From: Candidatus Curtissbacteria bacterium RIFCSPLOWO2_02_41_11
GTDB lineage: Bacteria; Patescibacteriota; Microgenomatia; Curtissbacterales; GWA2-41-24
Length of the DNA: 64,000 nt
Assembly: GCA_001775055.1 (NCBI GenBank)
Contig: MFBU01000009.1
Coordinates: 382-64,381 of the forward strand
Direction of reading: 5' to 3'
Every line of letters starts with the position of its first letter. Positions within the stretch are counted from its first letter, which is position 1. This document shows, one piece after another, positions 5,711 to 32,647 of the stretch. The notes under the pieces were generated by a model that saw only the letters and a list, made by a program, of their open reading frames with translations, had not been told where the DNA came from and made no database searches. Position numbers and translations under genes: made by a program.

Positions 5711-5789
5711 AAGACTAACGACTAACGCCTTAAAATCCAAGCATTAGTCGTTTAGCATTAGACATTAGTCGATAGGAGGAAGTGGGGAA

Positions 5790-7354: not shown

Positions 7355-8222
7355 ATAGGTTTGACTAAGTCAAGCCCTATAGTGTTAATTGGGGAAGAGA
7401 AGAATTTAACAAATTTCTAATTTCTAAATCCTAACTTCTAAAATTTTAGCTTCAATTTATAAAAAATTCCCGCAAAAAAAATATGATAGAGGAGGCGGAG
7501 TAGGGGGTATAGGTTTACACTGAGCGAAAGCGAAGTGATATAGTTTGATACATTTCGTGAAAACGAGAAGAAAAAAAGCGTGAAAAATTGATCAAGCTAT
7601 AGATTATCAACTATAAGGTTTTAATTACACGGCTAAAAGGATATAGTCAGGTATAAATCAGGTATAAATATAGAGGACTATGAGGCTCTTTATCCTCTAT
7701 AAGTTGTCCAATTTGGCAATTTTAGCAAGCGATGACCATGAATGCTAATGGCTAAAGTGCTGTTTTTGAGGGTTTTTGGGGAGGGGGTCTTTTAGGACAC
7801 AATTGACAATTGACATTTAACCTTTAACATTTTTTTCTACATCTTTTGCACCATTACTCCCCACAGAATAAGGGATAATGTTGCCGTCGCCTATGCGTCG
7901 CACAATGATACTTTTGCGACATAGATTGAGGCCGAGAGAGCAGGCGAAGCTCAATTTTGGTTTCTGGTTTCCAGTTTCAGGTTTCTAGTTATATTATTGT
8001 TGTTTCTTTATTTTTGACTTTTAACTTTTAATTTTTAACTTATCCAGTTTGTTCCATTTATCCCCTATTTGTTTTTATTTGCGTATTTTAGATTCTCTTT
8101 GCTCTTAAATTAATTAAAATAATGGTGGGAAATATCTAATTAATATAAAACGGCCGTTAAAAGGGCAATAATAGGCTTGGTGAACTTGAAAAAGCTTGTT
8201 GGAAAGCCTAAAATTAAAACTT

Positions 8223-9713
8223 ATGGATGTTAAAAATATAGAGACGGAGCTTTCAAAATTTATTTACGAACTGGAAACCGAAGATCGATTGGTTCGGGTT
8301 GGTTTAAAAGAAAAAGCCGAGACTTCAAAGATTTATAAGAAGTATCAAAATCTTTTTACTAGGGAAGTTCTTGACGGTCTTAAAAAACAAATTAATAAAA
8401 CCGGCAACGCCAAAACTCGTGAGATTTTACAGCGGATTTACTTTACAATAGCGGGCAGTTTTATTGGTCTTAAAACAGCAGTCTTGGATGACAGCATCAA
8501 AACTTACTTTTCACAAGCTAAAGTCAAGGTTAGAAATGAGGAACTTGCCTATTTCCAAATTAGTCCGAAAATAGCCAAAGAGCCAGTTTTTGATCAACGC
8601 GAACTATATAGTGATGCGATTGACTATGTAATAACCAAAATAAGCCCAAAACAGCTAGAACTTTTAAACACTGAAGTAAAACTTATCCAAAATTTGGGCT
8701 ATGGCAATTACCTTGCTTTTTATGCCAAAGCCAAGAAAATGGATTACGCAAACTTTAACAAGATAGCTGACAAAATTAAAAAAGAAACTGATAATCTTTG
8801 GCAGCGAACAATTGAGAAAGTGTCAAAAGAGATATTAGGAAGGTCCTTTAAAAATCTTCGATCTTGTCACATGGTTTATCTTAGATCACTTTCGATGTTT
8901 GATAACCTTTATCCGAAGGAAAAAGTCGTCTCGACCTTTTTGCAGTTTGCAAATGACCTGGGACTGGCCGATTTACTATCAAGGGTTAAAATTGATGATA
9001 AGGACAGACCGCGAAAGAATCCAAGGGCAGTTTGTTACTGGCCAAAGCCGCCGCAAGAAGTTCACTTGGTTATTAAACCAATTGGCGGCGAGCAGGATTT
9101 TGAAGCGATGTTTCATGAAGGCGGGCATGCGCTTCATGGAGCAGCGGTTGATACCAAACTTCCTTATGCTTTAAAAACACTTTCTCGCTCCGGAGCATTG
9201 ACCGAAACTTATGCTTTTATTCTTGAAGATTTAGTTTTTAATCCCCTATGGCTTTCAACATTTTTGAATGTTTCTGCAAATAGCGCCCAGCGTATTCAGA
9301 AACAGGCTTATTTTGTCAATTTGATGATGCTGAGGCGATACCTGGGCAAATTCTCATATGAATATGAGATGTTCTCGCAGAATGCAATTGCTAAGGGTCC
9401 GGCTCTCTATGCTAAAAATTTACAGAACTTAACAGGATTTATAACCAAAAAGATCTACTGGCTTTCTGACATGGATAGTGGTTTTTACAGTGCCGATTAT
9501 TTGCGGGCTTGGATTGGGGCGGCGCAGATTAAAGATTATTTGAAGCGCAAATTTGGTCAAAAATGGTTTTTAAACCCCAAAGCCGGCAAGTTTTTGCGAG
9601 GGTTATTTGCACGAGGTGTCAGCGATGAAGTTGAGGATGTGGTGAGAAAGCTTAGCTATAGACCTTTTGATATTTCCCTATTGGTTTCCGGCTATAAAAA
9701 AGTTTTGTCCTAA
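8223..9713 (+). CDS. M3/M32-family zinc metallopeptidase (oligoendopeptidase/carboxypeptidase-like)
   Basis: HExxH zinc motif in context MFHEGGHALHG. Size ~500 aa. Start moved to in-frame ATG 8223 (MDVKNIETEL); the track start 8196 is TTG. Confidence 0.6.
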   Translation: MDVKNIETELSKFIYELETEDRLVRVGLKEKAETSKIYKKYQNLFTREVLDGLKKQINKTGNAKTREILQRIYFTIAGSFIGLKTAVLDDSIKTYFSQAKVKVRNEELAYFQISPKIAKEPVFDQRELYSDAIDYVITKISPKQLELLNTEVKLIQNLGYGNYLAFYAKAKKMDYANFNKIADKIKKETDNLWQRTIEKVSKEILGRSFKNLRSCHMVYLRSLSMFDNLYPKEKVVSTFLQFANDLGLADLLSRVKIDDKDRPRKNPRAVCYWPKPPQEVHLVIKPIGGEQDFEAMFHEGGHALHGAAVDTKLPYALKTLSRSGALTETYAFILEDLVFNPLWLSTFLNVSANSAQRIQKQAYFVNLMMLRRYLGKFSYEYEMFSQNAIAKGPALYAKNLQNLTGFITKKIYWLSDMDSGFYSADYLRAWIGAAQIKDYLKRKFGQKWFLNPKAGKFLRGLFARGVSDEVEDVVRKLSYRPFDISLLVSGYKKVLS

Positions 9714-10201: not shown

Positions 10202-10918
10202 TTAGGAGATCAGGGTGCCGATTTTTTGGCCGGAGACCGCTTTTTCGATATTGCCTTCTTTGCCCAAGTCAAAAACCAGAATCGGAATTTTGTGTTCCAT
10301 ACAAAGAGAAATTGCATTGTTATCAAGAACTTCAATTTGTTTGTCGGTAAGGGCTTGTTTAAAAGTCAGATTTTCTAATTTTTTAGCATCTTTATAAACT
10401 TTGGGATCTTTGTCATAGACAGCGTCGACTTTGGTGCCTTTTAAGATAATTTCGCATTTGGTTTCTAAGGCCCGAAGGGCAGCTGTGGTATCAGTAGTAA
10501 AAAAAGGATTGCCGGTGCCGCCGGCAAAAATAACCACTCTACCCTTTTCCAAATGGCGGATAGCCCGACGTCTGACATAAGGTTCGCAGACATCTTTAAC
10601 TTCAATTGCCGAAAGAACTCGGGTATCTTGCTTTTCTTTTTCCAAAGCCGCCTGCAGGGCCAGTGAATTCATGATGGTTGCCAGCATGCCGATATAATCC
10701 CCGACTGTGCGCTCAAGACCATGTTCGGCTGCCCGCTCGCCCCTGAAAATATTGCCGCCGCCGACAACTACCGCAATTTGGACGCCACTTTTAGTCGCCT
10801 TGATGATTTCGCGGGCCAGCCATTGGCAAAAGACTGGATCAATGCCGTATTCTCTTTTTCCCAGAAAAGTTTCACCGGAAAGTTTCAGAAGCACGCGTTT
10901 GTATTTAGGTTGGGCCAT
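10202..10918 (-). CDS. pyrH: UMP kinase
   Basis: KRVLLKLSGETFLGKREYGIDP...IAVVVGGGNIFRG matches PyrH. Confidence 0.9.
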   Translation of the reverse strand: MAQPKYKRVLLKLSGETFLGKREYGIDPVFCQWLAREIIKATKSGVQIAVVVGGGNIFRGERAAEHGLERTVGDYIGMLATIMNSLALQAALEKEKQDTRVLSAIEVKDVCEPYVRRRAIRHLEKGRVVIFAGGTGNPFFTTDTTAALRALETKCEIILKGTKVDAVYDKDPKVYKDAKKLENLTFKQALTDKQIEVLDNNAISLCMEHKIPILVFDLGKEGNIEKAVSGQKIGTLIS

Positions 10919-11100
10919 TTAAGGTTATTTTAGCAGTTTCACCCTGATCATGTCGACTTTACGTCAGTTGTTGGTGAAAATAGGATTTGGGACACAGAGT
11001 CGAAGACCCTGAGCGAGTGAAACGAGTCGAAGGGTCGCAGAATTTTGGGGATAGCTTCCCCACTTCTTGATTTTTACTTTGAGAGCGTCGTACAATTGTA

Positions 11101-11156
11101 ACTGACAACTGACAACTGACAACTGACAACTGACAACTGACAACTGACAACTGACA
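11101..11156 (+). repeat. 8 perfect tandem copies of heptamer ACTGACA ending 3 nt before the xerC-like ATG
   Basis: Counted directly: 56 nt = 8 x 7. Spurious ORFs 10959..11150 and 10964..11239 are artefacts of this tract. Confidence 0.9.
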
Positions 11157-11159
11157 AAA

Positions 11160-12095
11160 ATGGCTTTTGATCTGCCCTCTTTGATTGATGAGTTTTTAGA
11201 GTATTTAGAGATTGAGCGCAATCTCTCCCCTCTTACCATTCGCGATTACCGGCATTACTTAAATCATTTTGCTGATTGGTCAAAAAACCATTCTCCGATT
11301 TTGCGACCTCAGGATATAACAGTCGAGTTAATCCGCAAATATCGAGTGTATTTAGCCCATTACAACAGCCCGAACGGCCAATTACCTCTTAAAAAAGTCA
11401 CCCAGAATTATTATGTTATTGCCTTGCGGTCGTTTCTTAAATATTTAATAAGAAAAGATTTACCGGTGATATCGCCTGATAAAATTGAGCTTCCCAAAAC
11501 CGAAAGCCGTTCTTTGAAGTTTTTGGATCGGGATCAAGTTGATCGACTCTTGGTTCAACCGAATGTATCAAGCGAGCGAGGGATTCGTGATAAGGTTATC
11601 ATGGAGATGCTTTTTTCAACGGGACTTAGGGTTTCGGAATTGTGTCGGCTGAATCGGGACCAAGTTAATCTAGAGCGAGGTGAATTTGGAGTTGTCGGCA
11701 AAGGTCAACGCTTGCGGGTGGTTTTTCTTTCTGATAGGGCTAAAATTTGGCTGGAGAAGTATTTGGCAAGAAGAACGGATAGTTTTAAGCCGCTTTTTAT
11801 TCGGTATGCCGGTAATCAGGAACCTGTGGTTAATGGGGAGAAGATGAGATTGACTCCCCGATCTGTTCAGCGAATCATTGACAAATATGTGCGAAAAGCC
11901 CGTTTGCCGGTGAAGGCCACGCCCCATGTTCTTCGTCATTCATTTGCAACCGATCTTTTAATGAATGGAGCGGATTTAAGATCAGTGCAAGAGCTTTTGG
12001 GTCACAAGAATGTTTCTACCACCCAAATTTACACCCATGTAACAAATCAACAGTTGAGAGACGTACACAAGGCCTTTCATTCAGGGAATAAATAG
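11160..12095 (+). CDS. tyrosine site-specific recombinase XerC/XerD family
   Basis: N-terminal core-binding domain (FLEYLEIERNLSPLTIRDYRHYL) and C-terminal catalytic motifs (RHSFATDLLMNGADLRSVQELLGHKNVSTTQIYTHV). Confidence 0.88.
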   Translation: MAFDLPSLIDEFLEYLEIERNLSPLTIRDYRHYLNHFADWSKNHSPILRPQDITVELIRKYRVYLAHYNSPNGQLPLKKVTQNYYVIALRSFLKYLIRKDLPVISPDKIELPKTESRSLKFLDRDQVDRLLVQPNVSSERGIRDKVIMEMLFSTGLRVSELCRLNRDQVNLERGEFGVVGKGQRLRVVFLSDRAKIWLEKYLARRTDSFKPLFIRYAGNQEPVVNGEKMRLTPRSVQRIIDKYVRKARLPVKATPHVLRHSFATDLLMNGADLRSVQELLGHKNVSTTQIYTHVTNQQLRDVHKAFHSGNK

Positions 12096-12817: not shown

Positions 12818-12914
12818 TGCCCATCAAAAATGGCTGACCGTCTGGTATCAGCCAATTGTAATGTATGATAAACTAGATTATTCCCAAAATCAACTATGGG
12901 GTTAATTTCCCGAG

Positions 12915-15900
12915 TTAATTTTTGAAGGTTACATACTGATTCCAGGGAAGAATTTTGAGATCGGCGGGTTTTTTGAGGGAAATTGCCTTGACAAAAAGCT
13001 GAGCGGCTTGCATGTTGGCAAGTAGCGGTATGCCAAAGTCAATTGATGCTCGGCGGATTAAATAATCATCATCGAACTCTTTTTTAAAGTAAGGATCAAA
13101 GATATTGATGACCAGATCAATCTTTTTGGCCAAAAGAAAGTCCAGGACATTGGGTTTTTGATGTTCGTGAATTTTATAAAGTTTGGTAACATCAATACCG
13201 TGGTTTTTGAAAAATTGGGCGGTGCCGGCCGTGGCATAAATTTTAAGACCCATTTTAAAAAGAGTTTTGGCGGCTTCTTGGAATTTGATCTTGTTTTCTT
13301 CACCAGCCAGGGAGATAAAGACCGATTTTTTGGGTAAGGAGACACCGGTTGCTATTTGCGATTTTAAATAGGCCTCATAGATATCATCACCAAAACAGGC
13401 GACTTCACCGGTTGAGGCCATTTCGACTCGCAAAATCGGATCTGCGCCTTTGATACGGGCGAACGAAAACTGGGGAGCTTTGACCGCGACATAATCTGGT
13501 CTCTGGTCTCTGGTCTCTGGTCTCTGGTCAATGCCTAGTATTGCTTCGGTGGCTAATTTGGCAAAGTTGATGCCGGTGACTTTAGAGACAAAAGGAAGTG
13601 AGCGGCTGGCACGCAAATTGCACTCAATAACCATTACCCGGTTGTTTTCGGCCAAAAATTGGATGTTGAAAGGACCAGTGATGTTAAGTTCCCTAGCAAT
13701 TTTTTGGGCAATTTTTTTGATTTGTTCAATTGTTTGAGTGTAGAGCTTTTGGGCGGGCAAAACCATACTGGAGTCTCCGCTGTGTACGCCGGCATTTTCG
13801 ACGTGTTCTATGATCGCCTGACATAAAACTTTGCCGTTTTTGGCCACAGCATCGATTTCGATTTCTTTGGAATTTTGATGGAACTGAGAAATAACTACAG
13901 GGTATTCTGCGGAAACTTGTGAAGCAGCCAAAAGATAAGCTTCAAGGTCCTGCGGGTTAAAGGCCACATTCATGGCTGCTCCGGAAAGAACATATGATGG
14001 GCGTACTAAAACCGGATAGCCGATTTTTTGGGCAAAGACAATTGCCTCCCCGACATTTTTAAGTTTGGCCCAAACGGGTTGAGCGATATCAAGCTCGTCG
14101 CAAAGCTTGGAAAATTTGCTTCTGTCCTCTGCCCTATCGATTGAAGTGACTTTAGTTCCTAAAATTGCCAAGCCCCTTTGGGTAAGTTTGGTGGCCAGAT
14201 TGTTGGGGGTTTGGCCGCCCATGGAAACAATTAGGCCGCTCGGTTTTTCTTTGTGGTAAATTTCTGTGATTGTCTCTTCGGTTAATTCTTCAAAATAGAG
14301 TTTTTGGGCCATGTCAAAGTCGGTAGAAACAGTTTCGGGGTTACAGTTGATAATGATTGTCGAAAAATTGCAACTTTCGGCTGTTTGGGCACAAGTGACC
14401 GAACACCAGTCAAATTCGACAGAGGAACCAATGCGGTAAGGACCGGAGCCCAAGACGATAACCTTTGACATTTGACCTTTGACATTTGACCTTTGACTTA
14501 CAACATCATCTGATTCTCCATTGTAAGTCAGATAAAGGTAATTAGTCTCGGCCGGGTATTCGGCAGCTAAAGTGTCGATTTGTTTGACGGATGGATGAAT
14601 GTCGAATTTGTGTCGAAGTTGGCGGATTTTGTCTTTCGTTGAACCCGTTAAAGTTGTTAATCGTTTATCGGAAAACCCAAGTTGTTTGGCTAAAAGAAGA
14701 GCATCACGGCTATTAAAAGTATCAGGGGTACCATGAGTTTTTTGTTTTGAGACTTTGATACTTTTTTCAAAATCGCAGATATTCTTAAGTTTGTAAAGGA
14801 AGAATGGATCGATACCGGTGGCTTGGGCAATTTTTTCGACGGCAGTTTTTTGGCGGATAGCGCGGGCGATGGCAAAAATCCGCCAAGGGGTTGGTTTGGC
14901 CCAGGAAACCTTTGGTGCCTTTTCATCCAAAATTCCCTCAAAACCGATATCAAGCATACGCACGGCTTTTTGAATTGCCTCTTCAAATTTTCGACCGACA
15001 GCCATAACTTCGCCAACCGATTGCATCGAGGAGCCGATTTCTGTTTGGCTTTTTAAGAATTTGGCAAGATCCCATCTGGGGAACTTGACGACCAGATAAT
15101 CAAGAGCCGGTTCAAAGCAGGCAATGGTTTTTTTGGTAACCGAGTTTTGAAGATCGGTTAGTGAGTAGCCCAGCGCCAATTTGGCGGCAATATAGGCTAA
15201 GGGATAACCAGTGGCTTTGGAGGCCAATGCCGAGGAGCGGGAAAGACGGGCATTAACTTCGATGATGCGGTAGTCGAGGCTGGAAGTGAGAGATGAGAAG
15301 TGAGAAGCTGGATCCCACTTCGGATTTGGGTTCAGAGCGAATTGGATATTGCATTCGCCGACAATACCCAGGTGTCTAATGACTTTGATAGAAATCTCAC
15401 GAAGCTTGTGATATTCGAAGTTGTTAAGGGTTTGGGAAGGAGCAACGACGATTGATTCGCCCGTGTGGATGCCCATTGGGTCGATATTTTCCATGTTGCA
15501 AACAGTGATGCAGTTGTCAAATTTGTCTCTGACTACTTCATATTCAACCTCCTTCCACTTATCGAGATATTCCTCAATTAAGATTTGGCCAACTTTGGCA
15601 AGAGCCCGAGTGGCAATTTCCACAAGTTGTTTTCGATTTTGAGCCATACCGCTGTCTTGACCGCCTAGTGAAAAGCCGCCTCTTATCATTATCGGGTAGC
15701 CGATTGTGGTGGCGACAGCCAATGCTTGTTTGACGGTTTTAACTGCCTGACTTTGAGGGCACTTCAGGTTAATTTGATCTAAGGTGTTGACAAAAAGTTG
15801 TCGGTCTTCAGTCTTCTCGATTGTTTCAATGGATGTTCCTAATACTTCGACTTGGTATTTTTGAAAAATCCGATCCTTGGCCAGTAATAGACCGCAATTT

Positions 15901-27946: not shown

Positions 27947-28124
27947 CTCGAAACATTAAACCTTAAACTTGAAACCATAAACTGAACAGAGACTAAGTGG
28001 TGGTAGCTTGTGAAGTATTTCATGTTTCCAGTTTATTGTTTCCTGTTTCACGTTAGGTATCTTGACAACAGTTAACTTATCCCCAATACTTAAATAGAAG
28101 AGGAAATTTGAAAAGTTTATCCTC

Positions 28125-29924: not shown

Positions 29925-30539
29925 ATGAGGAAGGGTTTTGGTCTGATCGAATTTATGATCGTGATTACGGTTTTTGGAATCGCGACTGCCGTTATCACCG
30001 CCTCATTTTTAACATTTGAGCGCAATCAACGCCTAAAAAGCGCCGCCAGTATGTTAAAAAATGACATCAGGCTAATTCAAAACAAGGCACTCGGTGGGGA
30101 TAAAAGTACACCTAACTGTTCCAAAGTAACCGATCCTGCTCCGGTTTTGGTTGGTTGGTACCTGAACGTGGTTAAAGGTTCGAGTGAGTATACGTTAAAT
30201 AGCGATTGTAGAAATAAAGATAGTATTGAAGACCCTGATATTCTAATTAAAATTGTTTCATTGCCACGGGGGGTTAAAATTAGCGATGTACAATACGGGA
30301 ACAGTTCTCCTGTTTCAAAGGATGCCATCAACGTTTTATTCCAACCTTTAACACATAACACATCATTCCATGATGCTTTGCTGGCAATTACTCCCCCTTT
30401 TCTTGATAATTCGGGAAATCTAAAAGATCTATTGGGTTCATTACCTCAGGAAATGCTTAGTATTATTTTAGCCGGAGACCAAGGTGGAACTTATAAAGTT
30501 ATTGTCCAGCCTTCAGGAGAAGTTAATGAGCAAAAATAA
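29925..30539 (+). CDS. pseudopilin/minor pilin with prepilin-type N-terminus
   Basis: MRKG|FGLIEFMIVITVFGIA. Confidence 0.75.
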   Translation: MRKGFGLIEFMIVITVFGIATAVITASFLTFERNQRLKSAASMLKNDIRLIQNKALGGDKSTPNCSKVTDPAPVLVGWYLNVVKGSSEYTLNSDCRNKDSIEDPDILIKIVSLPRGVKISDVQYGNSSPVSKDAINVLFQPLTHNTSFHDALLAITPPFLDNSGNLKDLLGSLPQEMLSIILAGDQGGTYKVIVQPSGEVNEQK

Positions 30540-31017
30540 GCCAGATACCAGATACCAGATACCAGATACCAAATTTCTCGGTCAATCTCTCATCGAGGTT
30601 GTCATCGCCATGGCTGTTATTGTCGGTTTGGCTGTGGCTTTGGTGACTACGACTTTGGTTGTCCAGAAAGCATCAAGGACGGCCAAAAATAATACTCAGG
30701 CTACGAAGTTAGTCCAGCAAAATATCGAGCAGGTAAGAGTTTATAGGGACCGCAAAGGCTATGCTTCTATCCCCGATGGAGGTAGCTGTTATACACTATC
30801 CTCAGGTGATCCAGATCCCCTTAGCTGGTTCTTTTCTGCTTCTTTTGACTGTTCTGGAAGTGGGCAGCAAATTACTTTGGGTAAGACCAATTTCGACAGA
30901 AAAATAAAGATTGAAACTGATGCTAGTACAAAAAAGGTTACTGTTACCGTTTCTTGGACAGATTCTGGCGGAACCCAGTCGGTTAGTAATCAAACCATTC
31001 TATCTTCAGGCCTCTAG
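30526..31017 (+). CDS. minor pilin-like protein; leader region contains 4x heptamer CAGATAC
   Basis: ...KFLG|QSLIEVVIAMAVIVGL prepilin-like. ATG 30526 preferred over the track start 30484. Heptamer tract at 30541-30568. Confidence 0.65.
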   Translation: MSKNKPDTRYQIPDTKFLGQSLIEVVIAMAVIVGLAVALVTTTLVVQKASRTAKNNTQATKLVQQNIEQVRVYRDRKGYASIPDGGSCYTLSSGDPDPLSWFFSASFDCSGSGQQITLGKTNFDRKIKIETDASTKKVTVTVSWTDSGGTQSVSNQTILSSGL

Positions 31018-31061: not shown

Positions 31062-31739
31062 ATGCCCTTCCATAAAGTATCTAGTATCTGGTATCTAGTA
31101 TCTGGTATTAAATATACTAAATACAAAATACTAAATACAAAATACTGTAAAACCAAAGGCTTTACCCTCATTGAGCTTTTGGTTGTTTTGGGGATTTTGG
31201 CGGCGGCTGTTGGGGCTTCCATGATTTTTCTTACCTCTGTTTTAAAAGGGACTAATCAGGCTAATGTGACGGCCGAAGTTAAGCAAAACGGCCAAGTAGT
31301 TTTAGATTCACTGGAAAAACAGATTCGTGGTGCTACTGATGTGGAGTGTGCCAATAGTGCGGGGAACTCCGTTGATTGTTCCGATGCATCTGCTTCTCTT
31401 AAATACTTAAAGCTTGTGAGATCGGATGAAGACCCGTTACATATCGGGTGTTTTTTGGATAGTCTACCCAAAACAGAAAATGGCTGGATAGGCATTGTTG
31501 AGTCAGCTCTAGCTTATCCTTCATCAACAAACTATGTATCGGTTACAAATAAAGATGCTATTTCAGGAGTTGATATTCAGGATTGTAATTTTAAGGTATC
31601 CTCTGCATCTTCTGGAACAACTTCGCCATCGGTAGTTTCCATTAGCTTTATAGTCAATCAAGGAATTGACGCACCTTCACGCGCGGATTTTTTGGCTAAT
31701 GCTAAATTCGAGACGACGATATCGCTGAGAAACTATTAA
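31062..31739 (+). CDS. pilin-like protein with unusually long, repeat-encoded leader
   Basis: ...CKTKG|FTLIELLVVLGILAAA. The 33-aa leader is encoded by heptamer/14-mer tandem repeats at 31080-31145. True start uncertain. Confidence 0.65.
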   Translation: MPFHKVSSIWYLVSGIKYTKYKILNTKYCKTKGFTLIELLVVLGILAAAVGASMIFLTSVLKGTNQANVTAEVKQNGQVVLDSLEKQIRGATDVECANSAGNSVDCSDASASLKYLKLVRSDEDPLHIGCFLDSLPKTENGWIGIVESALAYPSSTNYVSVTNKDAISGVDIQDCNFKVSSASSGTTSPSVVSISFIVNQGIDAPSRADFLANAKFETTISLRNY

Positions 31740-31832: not shown

Positions 31833-32618
31833 ATGAAAAAGAAGAAGGGACAGGTTTTGGTACTTGTTTTATTGGTTGTCGTAGTAGCCTTGGCTGTTGG
31901 CCTTTCGGTGGCTAGCAGAAACCTGACCAATCTTAGAACGACTACTCAAACCGAACAGTCTCAGAGAGCCTTTAATGCAGCCGAAGGCGGGATAGAGAGT
32001 ATTCTTCCAAATTTAGCTACAGTTGCGGAAGGGCCTCAACCAGCAATTCAAGTGGGTAATCTTGAAGCCAATGTCACTGTTAATAAAGAGACTGAATACT
32101 TCTGGACGATTCCAGAAGGAGAAGTTGGTCAGGTTAAATTGGATGACGCAACCGGTAGCCCGACTGAGATTCAAATTGAGTGGGTCAAAACCGGTGATCC
32201 TCAAGAAGATCCGACACCGCCGCTCAGCGGTACTCCTGCCTCGGTTGAGATTACGAGAATCGATGAGACTGCAGGTAATTTTACCCAACAGAGATTTGCC
32301 TTGACAGGTGGATCGGCAGGGGTAAACGAGCAGGGTTTTGATTCTCCAAGTAATTGTTCTGCCGACTTTGTGAAATGTACAAAAATTGGTTTTCCAAGTA
32401 ATTCGCGAATTTTAAGAATCAGACCCTTTTGGAATCAGGCGACGGTTAAGGTAACATCTGTTGGCGGTAGCCTTCCCGATCAGCAATATACTATTACTTC
32501 ATCGGCAACGTCCGAACTTGGATTGACTAGAAAAATTGAAGTTACCAAAACAGTTTTGCCGCAGCTGCCGGCGGTTTTTGACTATGTTTTGTATTCTGAA
32601 CGAGATATTGTTAAGTAA
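31833..32618 (+). CDS. hypothetical membrane-anchored protein in pilus locus
   Basis: N-terminal transmembrane segment VLVLVLLVVVVALAVGL, rest T/S/G-rich. Confidence 0.55.
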   Translation: MKKKKGQVLVLVLLVVVVALAVGLSVASRNLTNLRTTTQTEQSQRAFNAAEGGIESILPNLATVAEGPQPAIQVGNLEANVTVNKETEYFWTIPEGEVGQVKLDDATGSPTEIQIEWVKTGDPQEDPTPPLSGTPASVEITRIDETAGNFTQQRFALTGGSAGVNEQGFDSPSNCSADFVKCTKIGFPSNSRILRIRPFWNQATVKVTSVGGSLPDQQYTITSSATSELGLTRKIEVTKTVLPQLPAVFDYVLYSERDIVK

Positions 32619-32647
32619 CAACTGACAACTGACATTTGACAAAAAAT

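Follow-up and report, generated by a model that had tools for sequence, protein, structure and literature searches.

The window analysed here, a 64,000-nucleotide (nt) stretch of a Candidatus Curtissbacteria genome (contig MFBU01000009.1), carries a perfect heptanucleotide tandem repeat, (ACTGACA)x8, at 11101-11156 on the forward strand, directly in front of a gene for a Xer-type tyrosine recombinase (here xer; 11160-12095, forward strand, 311 amino acids). Our analysis favours the explanation that the tract is a product of the bias of this clade towards slippage of heptamer units, which would have given a leader to an xer mRNA that formerly had none, and that any function it has is probably a modest effect on Xer output; we consider this the probable account of the tract, held with appreciable doubt. 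The organism belongs to the Candidate Phyla Radiation (CPR; Microgenomates), has an ultra-small genome and comes from groundwater metagenomes. An earlier reading made from the letters of the DNA alone (the sequence-only reading) had taken the repeat for a device that makes the recombinase phase variable through changes in copy number. A phase-variable recombinase would matter if the claim were true, but the available data do not support it, and the tract is not specific to a recombinase gene, being one of at least 12 heptamer tracts in the window and the longest of them.

A perfect heptamer tract in front of xer

Direct reading and Tandem Repeats Finder both return the repeat as the sequence-only reading had described it, with its end 3 nt from the xer start codon (...GTCGTACAATTGTA(ACTGACA)x8 AAA ATG, with the ATG at 11160). 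Tandem Repeats Finder gave a period of 7, 8.3 copies, 100% matches, 0 indels and a score of 116, the highest of any array in the window; counting partial units, the tract extends over 11100-11157. It is not a chance occurrence, because locally shuffled copies of the window yield no period-7 tract (0 found). Rfam was searched with the intergenic region (E up to 1) and with the window in its entirety (gathering thresholds), and the only matches were four tRNAs and a meaningless microRNA match on the repeat.

That the repeat was created, collapsed or expanded during assembly is scarcely credible, because seven other assemblies, from different samples and with contig names of two assembler kinds, agree with the window base for base; at 56 nt the tract is also shorter than the k=141 implied by contig names of the k141_ type. 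What speaks for an artefact is a single assembly of 2015, L094 (GW2011_GWA2_41_24, GCA_000996905.1, LCBC01000012.1; L numbers denote the sequences compared with the window), which lacks 11098-11202, that is the tract together with 14-15 codons of xer. The same assembly has a second deletion of ~111 nt only 1.7 kb away, at the 3' end of carB (window 12892-13002), in otherwise identical sequence, which points to errors in L094 and not in the window. We considered L094 as a natural zero-copy allele and rejected it as a probable assembly error in view of this second deletion nearby, both deletions being damaging to genes. The annotated start of its xer, a TTG inside the -35 box, is a consequence of the loss of the tract together with the proper xer start.

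The gene behind the tract had been called xerC-like, and both profile matches and Pfam domains bear out its assignment to the Xer-type recombinases. The open reading frame (ORF) matched the XerC profile TIGR02224 with E=2.9e-75 (253 bits, under the equivalog cut-off of 335) and the XerD profile with E=7.3e-73 (245 bits, under the cut-off of 330), while its 224.3 bits against NF040815 XerA_Arch are just over the cut-off of 220; judged by these matches the product is a Xer-like protein of a divergent phylum. The C-terminal part corresponds to the catalytic domain PF00589 (Phage_integrase) and the N-terminal part to a SAM-like domain (Phage_int_SAM, PF02899/PF13102), and the translation shows an H-x-x-R motif (HVLRH) and the tyrosine in IYTHV. 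The protein is 100% identical to one of Candidatus Curtissbacteria bacterium RIFCSPLOWO2_02_41_11, and homologues at 50-86% identity are present in 80 species representatives, among which the closest are from Curtissbacteria (74-86%), followed by those of Levyibacteria and other Patescibacteria. A dif-like site, at which Xer proteins act, consists of two ~11-bp inverted arms around a 6-bp spacer; inspection by eye at and beside the tract gave no such inverted symmetry and only a 10-bp palindrome, TACAATTGTA, the dif site of the genome itself not having been sought.

The tract lies in the predicted leader of xer

A sigma-70-like promoter for xer, TTGATT-18-TACAAT, is predicted at 11067-11096 on the forward strand (-35 box 11067-11072, -10 box 11091-11096; 9/12 in a consensus scan) and ends 4 nt upstream of the tract. 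The repeat does not, then, fill the whole 5' proximal region of the gene as had been proposed, the intergenic region between pyrH and xer measuring 241 nt (10919-11159) and the promoter-like site lying upstream of the repeat. The -10 box is embedded in a conserved motif, GTCGTACAAT (11087-11096), and in an alignment of 14 Curtissbacteria lineages TTGATTT and GTCGTA.AAT stand at a fixed spacing of 18 nt (promoter form TTGATT-18-TA[CG]AAT). The stretch from the -10 box to the ATG is 6 nt long in seven of these 14 lineages (L006, L008, L009, L012, L018, L023 and L109), including one with the same promoter and 89% Xer identity; in the remaining seven it measures 36, 42, 46, 47, 63 (the window), 78 and 166 nt. 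The 6-nt geometry fits a leaderless mRNA and would leave no room for a second promoter. Taken together, the -10 boxes found 6-8 nt from start codons, in front of pyrH in the window and of xer in the seven sister lineages, suggest that mRNAs without a leader are frequent in these CPR genomes.

Because the promoter is conserved and the orthologues with the -10 box at 6 nt appear leaderless, we infer that the first heptamer holds the transcription start of xer in the window, at about 11101-11105, and that essentially all of the 5' untranslated region (5'UTR) consists of the tract. The predicted 5'UTR, taken from the -10 box to the start codon, is 63 nt long (11097-11159, forward strand) and A-rich just 5' of the ATG. 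On this placement the tract is a 5'UTR insertion and not a promoter spacer. Since it lies downstream of the -10 box, its copy number cannot alter the -35/-10 spacing and can change only the length of the 5'UTR.

The creation of an upstream reading frame, one of the two ways in which copy number had been thought to act, is closed. Neither ATG nor GTG nor TTG occurs in the 63-nt leader, and each of the three frames contains TGA whenever there are two or more copies, so that no upstream ORF can be created or broken and no alternative start lies inside the tract. A Shine-Dalgarno match of 4 nt was not found in the last 25 nt of the leader. Folding of 11101-11230 left the first ~36 nt unpaired and gave -18.8 kcal/mol against -16.5 +/- 2.9 for shuffles (z = -0.79), so that leader and early xer coding region fold no better than shuffled sequence and show no significant RNA structure. 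Leader length could have a graded, rheostat-like influence on translation or on mRNA stability.

Promoter elements within the tract itself were considered on both strands. On the plus strand, CTGACA resembles a -35 box, but the tract has no TA dinucleotide and hence no -10 box, and a promoter inside it was rejected. On the minus strand the tract could supply -35 boxes for transcription towards the divergent neighbour pyrH (UMP kinase; 10202-10918, minus strand; TIGR02075, 307.8 bits, over the cut-off). Such a promoter would read TTGTCA-16-TACAAT, with TTGTCA at 11122-11117, a 16-nt spacer and TACAAT at 11100-11095, would make use of the palindrome TACAATTGTA and reaches 10/12, the joint best score in the region. 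pyrH has, however, a promoter-like site of its own in the consensus scan (TCGACA-18-(TG)TAAAAT, 10956-10927, minus strand), whose end is 8 nt short of the pyrH start codon; sister lineages keep pyrH but have neither palindrome nor tract; and the promoter-like matches of the region are within shuffle expectation (4 against 2.7 +/- 1.5). We therefore hold a role of the tract in pyrH transcription to be very improbable.

A second copy of the conserved motif, GTCGCAGAAT, lies at 11034-11043 on the forward strand, 53 nt before the copy at the -10 box, and may represent a second promoter or an operator. In relatives the motif is strongly enriched 5' of xer, with 73 of 148 matches falling within 400 nt upstream of the gene. 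A role of the half-motif GTCG[CT]ANAAT as a promoter motif of general use was rejected, because it has only 4 copies in the 64-kb window, two of them in front of xer, and it is better regarded as a specific element. A further copy of the motif was seen on the minus strand at 11298-11307. At 7897-7920 the window also contains an element of the form GTCGCACAAT-gatacttt-TGCGAC, whose arms GTCGCA and TGCGAC are inverted repeats; it is conserved, matches no Rfam family and precedes xer by 1.7-4 kb in more than 50 related genomes. Together with the half-motifs, this element may serve as operator or promoter for a small regulon with xer among its members.

Copy number is constant among strains and the leader turns over between lineages

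The comparison of copy number rests on consensus assemblies, in which minority variants would be missed. At this level exactly 8 copies are present in all eight sequences that carry the tract, namely the window and seven assemblies from different samples (L001-L004, L085, L095 and L096) whose Xer is either the same or 99% identical, and the heterogeneity anticipated by the sequence-only reading does not appear. That reading had itself named 8 copies throughout, combined with a promoter upstream of the tract, as the outcome that would speak against a switch. This is very nearly what was found, the copy number being that of consensus assemblies and the promoter a predicted one. Metagenome contigs at JGI, searched with the flanks separated by gaps covering 4-12 copies and with the first 33 nt of xer, gave no copy of the locus, the organism being absent there.

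Between lineages the picture is one of turnover. A co-occurring lineage with a 98-99% identical Xer and the same promoter has a different leader of 46 nt, taagtagcaaattgt CTAACGA CTAAAGA CTAACGC aaagtatata, which consists of three ACTAACG-like units and is identical in five assemblies; the first xer codons of this lineage differ too. In a lineage at 94% the xer leader is ~166 nt long and has apparent hairpin-forming repeats that look, by eye, like a miniature inverted-repeat transposable element. In L065, a different species (84% identity), this position reads ATTGACA TTTGACA ACTGACA ATTGACA AAA ATG; L011, L015 and L016 have two to four ACTAACG-type units ending in CAAA(A)ATG, L086 also has units of ACTAACG type, and other species show 2-5 degenerate heptamer units. 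Period 7 is the best-scoring periodicity in the xer leaders of L007, L010, L015, L016, L017, L020, L021, L022, L035, L061, L065 and L073. Across lineages the site thus holds differing units in 0-8 copies. Comparison of these sequences indicates that a heptamer leader at the xer site is old and turns over between lineages, and that in the population of the window it is fixed at the consensus level.

Period 7 dominates the tandem repeats of the window and its clade

Period 7 is essentially the sole enriched tandem period in the window, besides its multiple 14 and a single period-9 tract. By period, there are 12 tracts of period 7 (444 nt), six of period 14 and one of period 9, while periods 4-6, 8, 10-13 and 15 have none. 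Around 29 of the 82 Tandem Repeats Finder rows for the window have period 7, and perfect repeats of at least three copies, sought at periods 6 to 15, occur at period 7 only. The bias extends to relatives: 728 kb from 80 related species contain 16 period-7 tracts in Curtissbacteria, 13 in Levyibacteria-like genomes and 3 in more distant ones, against 0-1 for other periods. With a looser detector, run on the window and L005-L084, 62 tracts were found and none in shuffles. Most of these (48 of 62) lie outside ORFs of at least 90 amino acids, which cover 79% of the sequence, and the coding tracts of the window sit in linkers or in leader or signal peptides. The positions of tracts also include 3' regions, sites 5' of promoters and linkers within coding sequence, and four tracts (those at xer, 32618, 38250 and 50811) stand 3-6 nt before start codons that have no Shine-Dalgarno sequence.

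The unit of the xer tract belongs to a family, ACTGACA/AYTGACA/TTTGACA, with members at 7799, 11100, 14461, 32618 and 60881; ACTAACG/ACTAGCG and AAACNNN form further families, and AATTTAA is also among the units. Many imperfect tracts appear to combine a conserved 4-nt core with three variable positions (AAAC-NNN, AACT-NNN, TTTC-NNN). In the Levyibacteria genome L030 (65% Xer identity) a perfect TGACAAC tract stands at 8431-8493, where an ABC-2 permease gene ends with its stop codon immediately before it. The window further contains two inverted pairs of tracts, one in which AAACNNN repeats at 27951-27982 face NNNGTTT repeats at 28018-28049 and one in which GACTAAC repeats at 5713-5727 face CATTAGT/CGTTTAG repeats at about 5745-5775. 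Such pairs could form long imperfect intergenic hairpins, and inverted heptamer pairs have been noted in Xanthomonas too (PMC4692102).

Sister tracts change by whole units in carB and line the pilus cluster

The premise that these repeats are prone to slippage, on which the sequence-only reading had built, finds support in two sister tracts that differ by 7 and 14 nt between near-identical strains. Both lie in carB, downstream of xer in a gene order (pyrH-xer-carB) that recurs in the close relatives examined. The first, (TCTGGTC)x5 at 13495-13529 on the minus strand, codes for a linker and is polymorphic among near-identical strains. L003 has four copies (-7 nt) and a frameshifted, split carB, and L001 and L095 have a third allele at the site, (TTTGACA)x5 in place of the tract, with a net gain of 3 nt that keeps the frame. 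At this site CarB has a hypervariable linker of 12-16 amino acids in all relatives. The second tract, TTTGACA/TTTGACC of period 7/14 at 14461-14499 on the minus strand, was identified by Tandem Repeats Finder and strain comparison and has a 14-nt deletion in L085, where carB is again frameshifted and split. Both carB indels coincide exactly with heptamer units; the other indels among near-identical strains, of 23 nt in L002 and 47 nt in L096, are outside tracts.

Patches of dense single-nucleotide polymorphisms were also seen between otherwise identical strains, at 8927-9062, 10448-10469 and 11948-12074 (7-24 differences in 20-140 nt), of the kind that short-patch homologous recombination typically leaves, here within the aquifer population. 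Since the population has such patches, an imported one would suffice for the unit swap in carB from TCTGGTC to TTTGACA, and a more exotic mechanism was set aside; among the loci compared, none held a donor allele.

Further sister tracts lie in the type IV pilus cluster. Between two of its genes, ACAACTG ACAACTG ACATTTG ACAA (32618-32642, forward strand) directly follows a stop codon and ends 5 nt before the next ATG. A (CCAGATA)x4.4 tract at 30541-30571 on the forward strand falls in the leader-peptide codons of a pilin-like gene at 30526-31017, and two tracts at 31076-31146 on the same strand, one of AGTATCT type (31076-31108) and one of ATACTAA type (31114-31146), code for most of the 32-amino-acid prepilin leader of the gene at 31062-31739. 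The prepilin leaders read MSKNKPDTRYQIPDTKFLG|QSLIEV in the former gene and MPFHKVSSIWYLVSGIKYTKYKILNTKYCKTKG|FTLIELL in the latter. In 31062-31739 there is no ATG between tract and processing motif, so that gain or loss of a single unit would put the pilin out of frame, as happens in neuO. The pilin tracts showed no variation in copy number across about eight assemblies. In L105 a gene at 874-1557, orthologous to the minor pilin gene at window 29925-30539, was seen to carry an 84-nt insertion right behind its ATG, lengthening the product from 204 to 227 amino acids; the insertion is composed of heptamer tracts, GGAAACA AGAAACG ... and (AGTTTCA)x4.

Origin of the xer leader and rival explanations

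Under the explanation that we prefer, the xer mRNA of the clade was probably leaderless or nearly so in the ancestor, where 6 nt would have separated the -10 box from the ATG. A heptamer seed of ACTRACR type, such as the 2-5 degenerate units of sister species, would have expanded and been homogenised to 8 perfect copies, most likely by replication slippage between the -10 box and the ATG, which would be the sole insertion-tolerant place beside xer. The outcome would be a leader of ~60 nt, transcribed and untranslated, unstructured, free of a Shine-Dalgarno sequence and with stops in each frame, likely to act on translation initiation or on the fate of the mRNA, and in this way on the amount of Xer, while promoter geometry is untouched. 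The transcription start site, slippage as the origin and any effect on expression are the parts of this account that we infer.

Several observations weigh against it. The start site and the use of the promoter are derived from consensus and conservation only. Eight perfect units that are invariant in eight assemblies are somewhat unexpected of a neutral tract that slips freely, and this invariance could reflect selection for exactly that length. In the imperfect tracts, whose borders are rough, 15 of 29 testable cases have their variable columns side by side, against ~7.4 expected, which hints at a conserved 4-nt core and hence at some function. The unit of the xer tract also recurs at an unrelated locus, the tract of the distant genome L030 being 8-9 copies of TGACAAC, which is ACTGACA rotated, in opposite orientation relative to the downstream gene.

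One alternative is that the tract is a selected periodic element, a leader module kept for its 7-nt phasing and core sequence. Candidates for such a module are a row of sites for a single-strand nucleic-acid-binding protein or for the ribosome, acting as a Shine-Dalgarno-independent enhancer, or a translational insulator. Beyond the contiguity of variable positions and the placing of several tracts just before Shine-Dalgarno-less starts, the recurrence of heptamer leaders before xer in many species, with the related units ACTAACG and ACTGACA and the A-rich end CAAA(A)ATG, argues in its favour. The absence of any xer leader from half of the 14 sister lineages argues against it, as do units that are wholly different between species at the same site, the tracts in 3' regions, upstream of promoters or in coding linkers, and the reversed orientation of the unit in L030. 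On balance we think it unlikely that the tract is maintained as an element of this kind.

Phase-variable or rheostat control, in which slippage in the xer 5'UTR shifts Xer output stepwise or on and off, is similarly doubtful. A perfect array of eight units is the slippage-prone kind of simple sequence repeat (SSR), sister tracts in the window differ by one or two units among near-identical strains, the xer site holds 2-8 units in different species, and there is a precedent in hmw1A, where a transcribed heptamer SSR, (ATCTTTC)n, sets expression (PMC12721329); some weight is kept for this alternative also because consensus sequences are the data compared. Yet the copy number is 8 in every sequence with the tract, the alternative leader of three units is equally invariant in its five assemblies, the position downstream of the -10 box leaves promoter spacing unaffected and the leader allows no upstream ORF. 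Nor is there a complementary arm or a hairpin of the hmw1A type, and a conserved Xer-type recombinase gene that keeps its place in a conserved gene order makes an atypical contingency gene.

On a wider scale, the heptamer tracts could together make up a contingency system that spans the genome of an organism poor in classical regulators, tuning or switching the recombinase through its leader, type IV pilins through their prepilin leader codons and even carB through the frameshift alleles of two assemblies, with the pattern of core plus variable triplet reflecting a dedicated binding or slippage-promoting factor. We mention this as a speculative proposal to which we attach little probability. 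What the sister tracts do establish is a recurrent source of unit-sized indels among near-identical strains, which can split real genes such as carB and so affect pseudogene calls and strain-level analyses of metagenome-assembled genomes. The occurrence of predicted leaderless and leadered forms of xer behind the same promoter in sister lineages also provides, for unculturable organisms, a natural experiment on translation initiation.

Comparison with known systems

To our knowledge, SSR-based phase variation has not been described for CPR/Patescibacteria, and our literature search likewise found none; the search for heptamer or tandem repeats in this group returned nothing relevant. Promoter-spacer SSR switches, with repeats between the -35 and -10 boxes, operate on surface-protein genes of Haemophilus and Neisseria. 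Like them the xer tract is near a promoter, but it lies downstream of the -10 box and leaves the spacing untouched. In neuO of E. coli K1 the heptamer SSR (AAGACTC)n is found in the 5' coding part, and only copy numbers that keep the frame lead to full-length protein (PMC13001214). Its counterparts in the window are sister tracts, those of the pilin-like genes 30526 and 31062 and the frameshift alleles of carB, whereas the xer tract is non-coding.

Mechanistically, the closest known case to the xer tract is (ATCTTTC)n of hmw1A in H. influenzae, a transcribed heptamer SSR that sets the level of expression (PMC12721329). As in hmw1A and hmw2A, a perfect 7-nt array stands between promoter and start codon, where it would be transcribed in the leader (PMC12721329, PMC8262952), and a change in copy number would alter the leader and not the protein. 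In hmw the repeats, as left arm, pair with a G-rich right arm into a long hairpin that RNase III cleaves (PMC12721329); the xer tract has no complementary arm and, at the z-score of -0.79 given above, no significant structure. The hmw arrays have at least 11 repeats in nature and a copy number that varies within populations, against 8 only for the xer tract, invariant in eight sequences, and the hmw genes encode adhesins, whereas the product here is a conserved recombinase of Xer type. Two defining features of hmw1A, variability within the population and the hairpin, were looked for at the xer tract and not found.

The broader likeness is with bacteria whose genomes hold an excess of heptanucleotide SSRs, namely the short tandemly repeated repetitive (STRR) sequences of cyanobacteria (Calothrix/Nostoc) and the GGGAATC repeats of Xanthomonas, the function of which is unknown (PMC4692102). 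As the cause of the excess, polymerase slippage favoured at a unit length of 7 nt has been proposed (PMC4692102, citing Mrazek 2007). The window and its relatives share with these groups a genome-wide excess of specifically period 7, in tracts that are mostly intergenic and that vary extensively in length and sequence at the same intergenic sites between close relatives. They differ in the phylum, the genomes here being small CPR/Patescibacteria genomes of ~41% GC, and in the presence of some tracts within coding sequence, where they fall in carB linkers, in prepilin leader peptides and in a signal peptide. The units, moreover, are AT-rich or mixed and none is G-rich, unlike GGGAATC / GGGGAYT of Xanthomonas, so that no G-quadruplex can form, and they are not known to match the STRR consensus either. 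The Curtissbacteria/Levyibacteria lineage of the Microgenomates thereby joins the few heptamer-rich groups, with heterocystous cyanobacteria and Xanthomonas, and offers a third and very distant test case for the unexplained question of why the unit should be seven. In every feature tested except the sequence of its unit, the xer tract fits this over-represented class of bacterial heptanucleotide SSRs.

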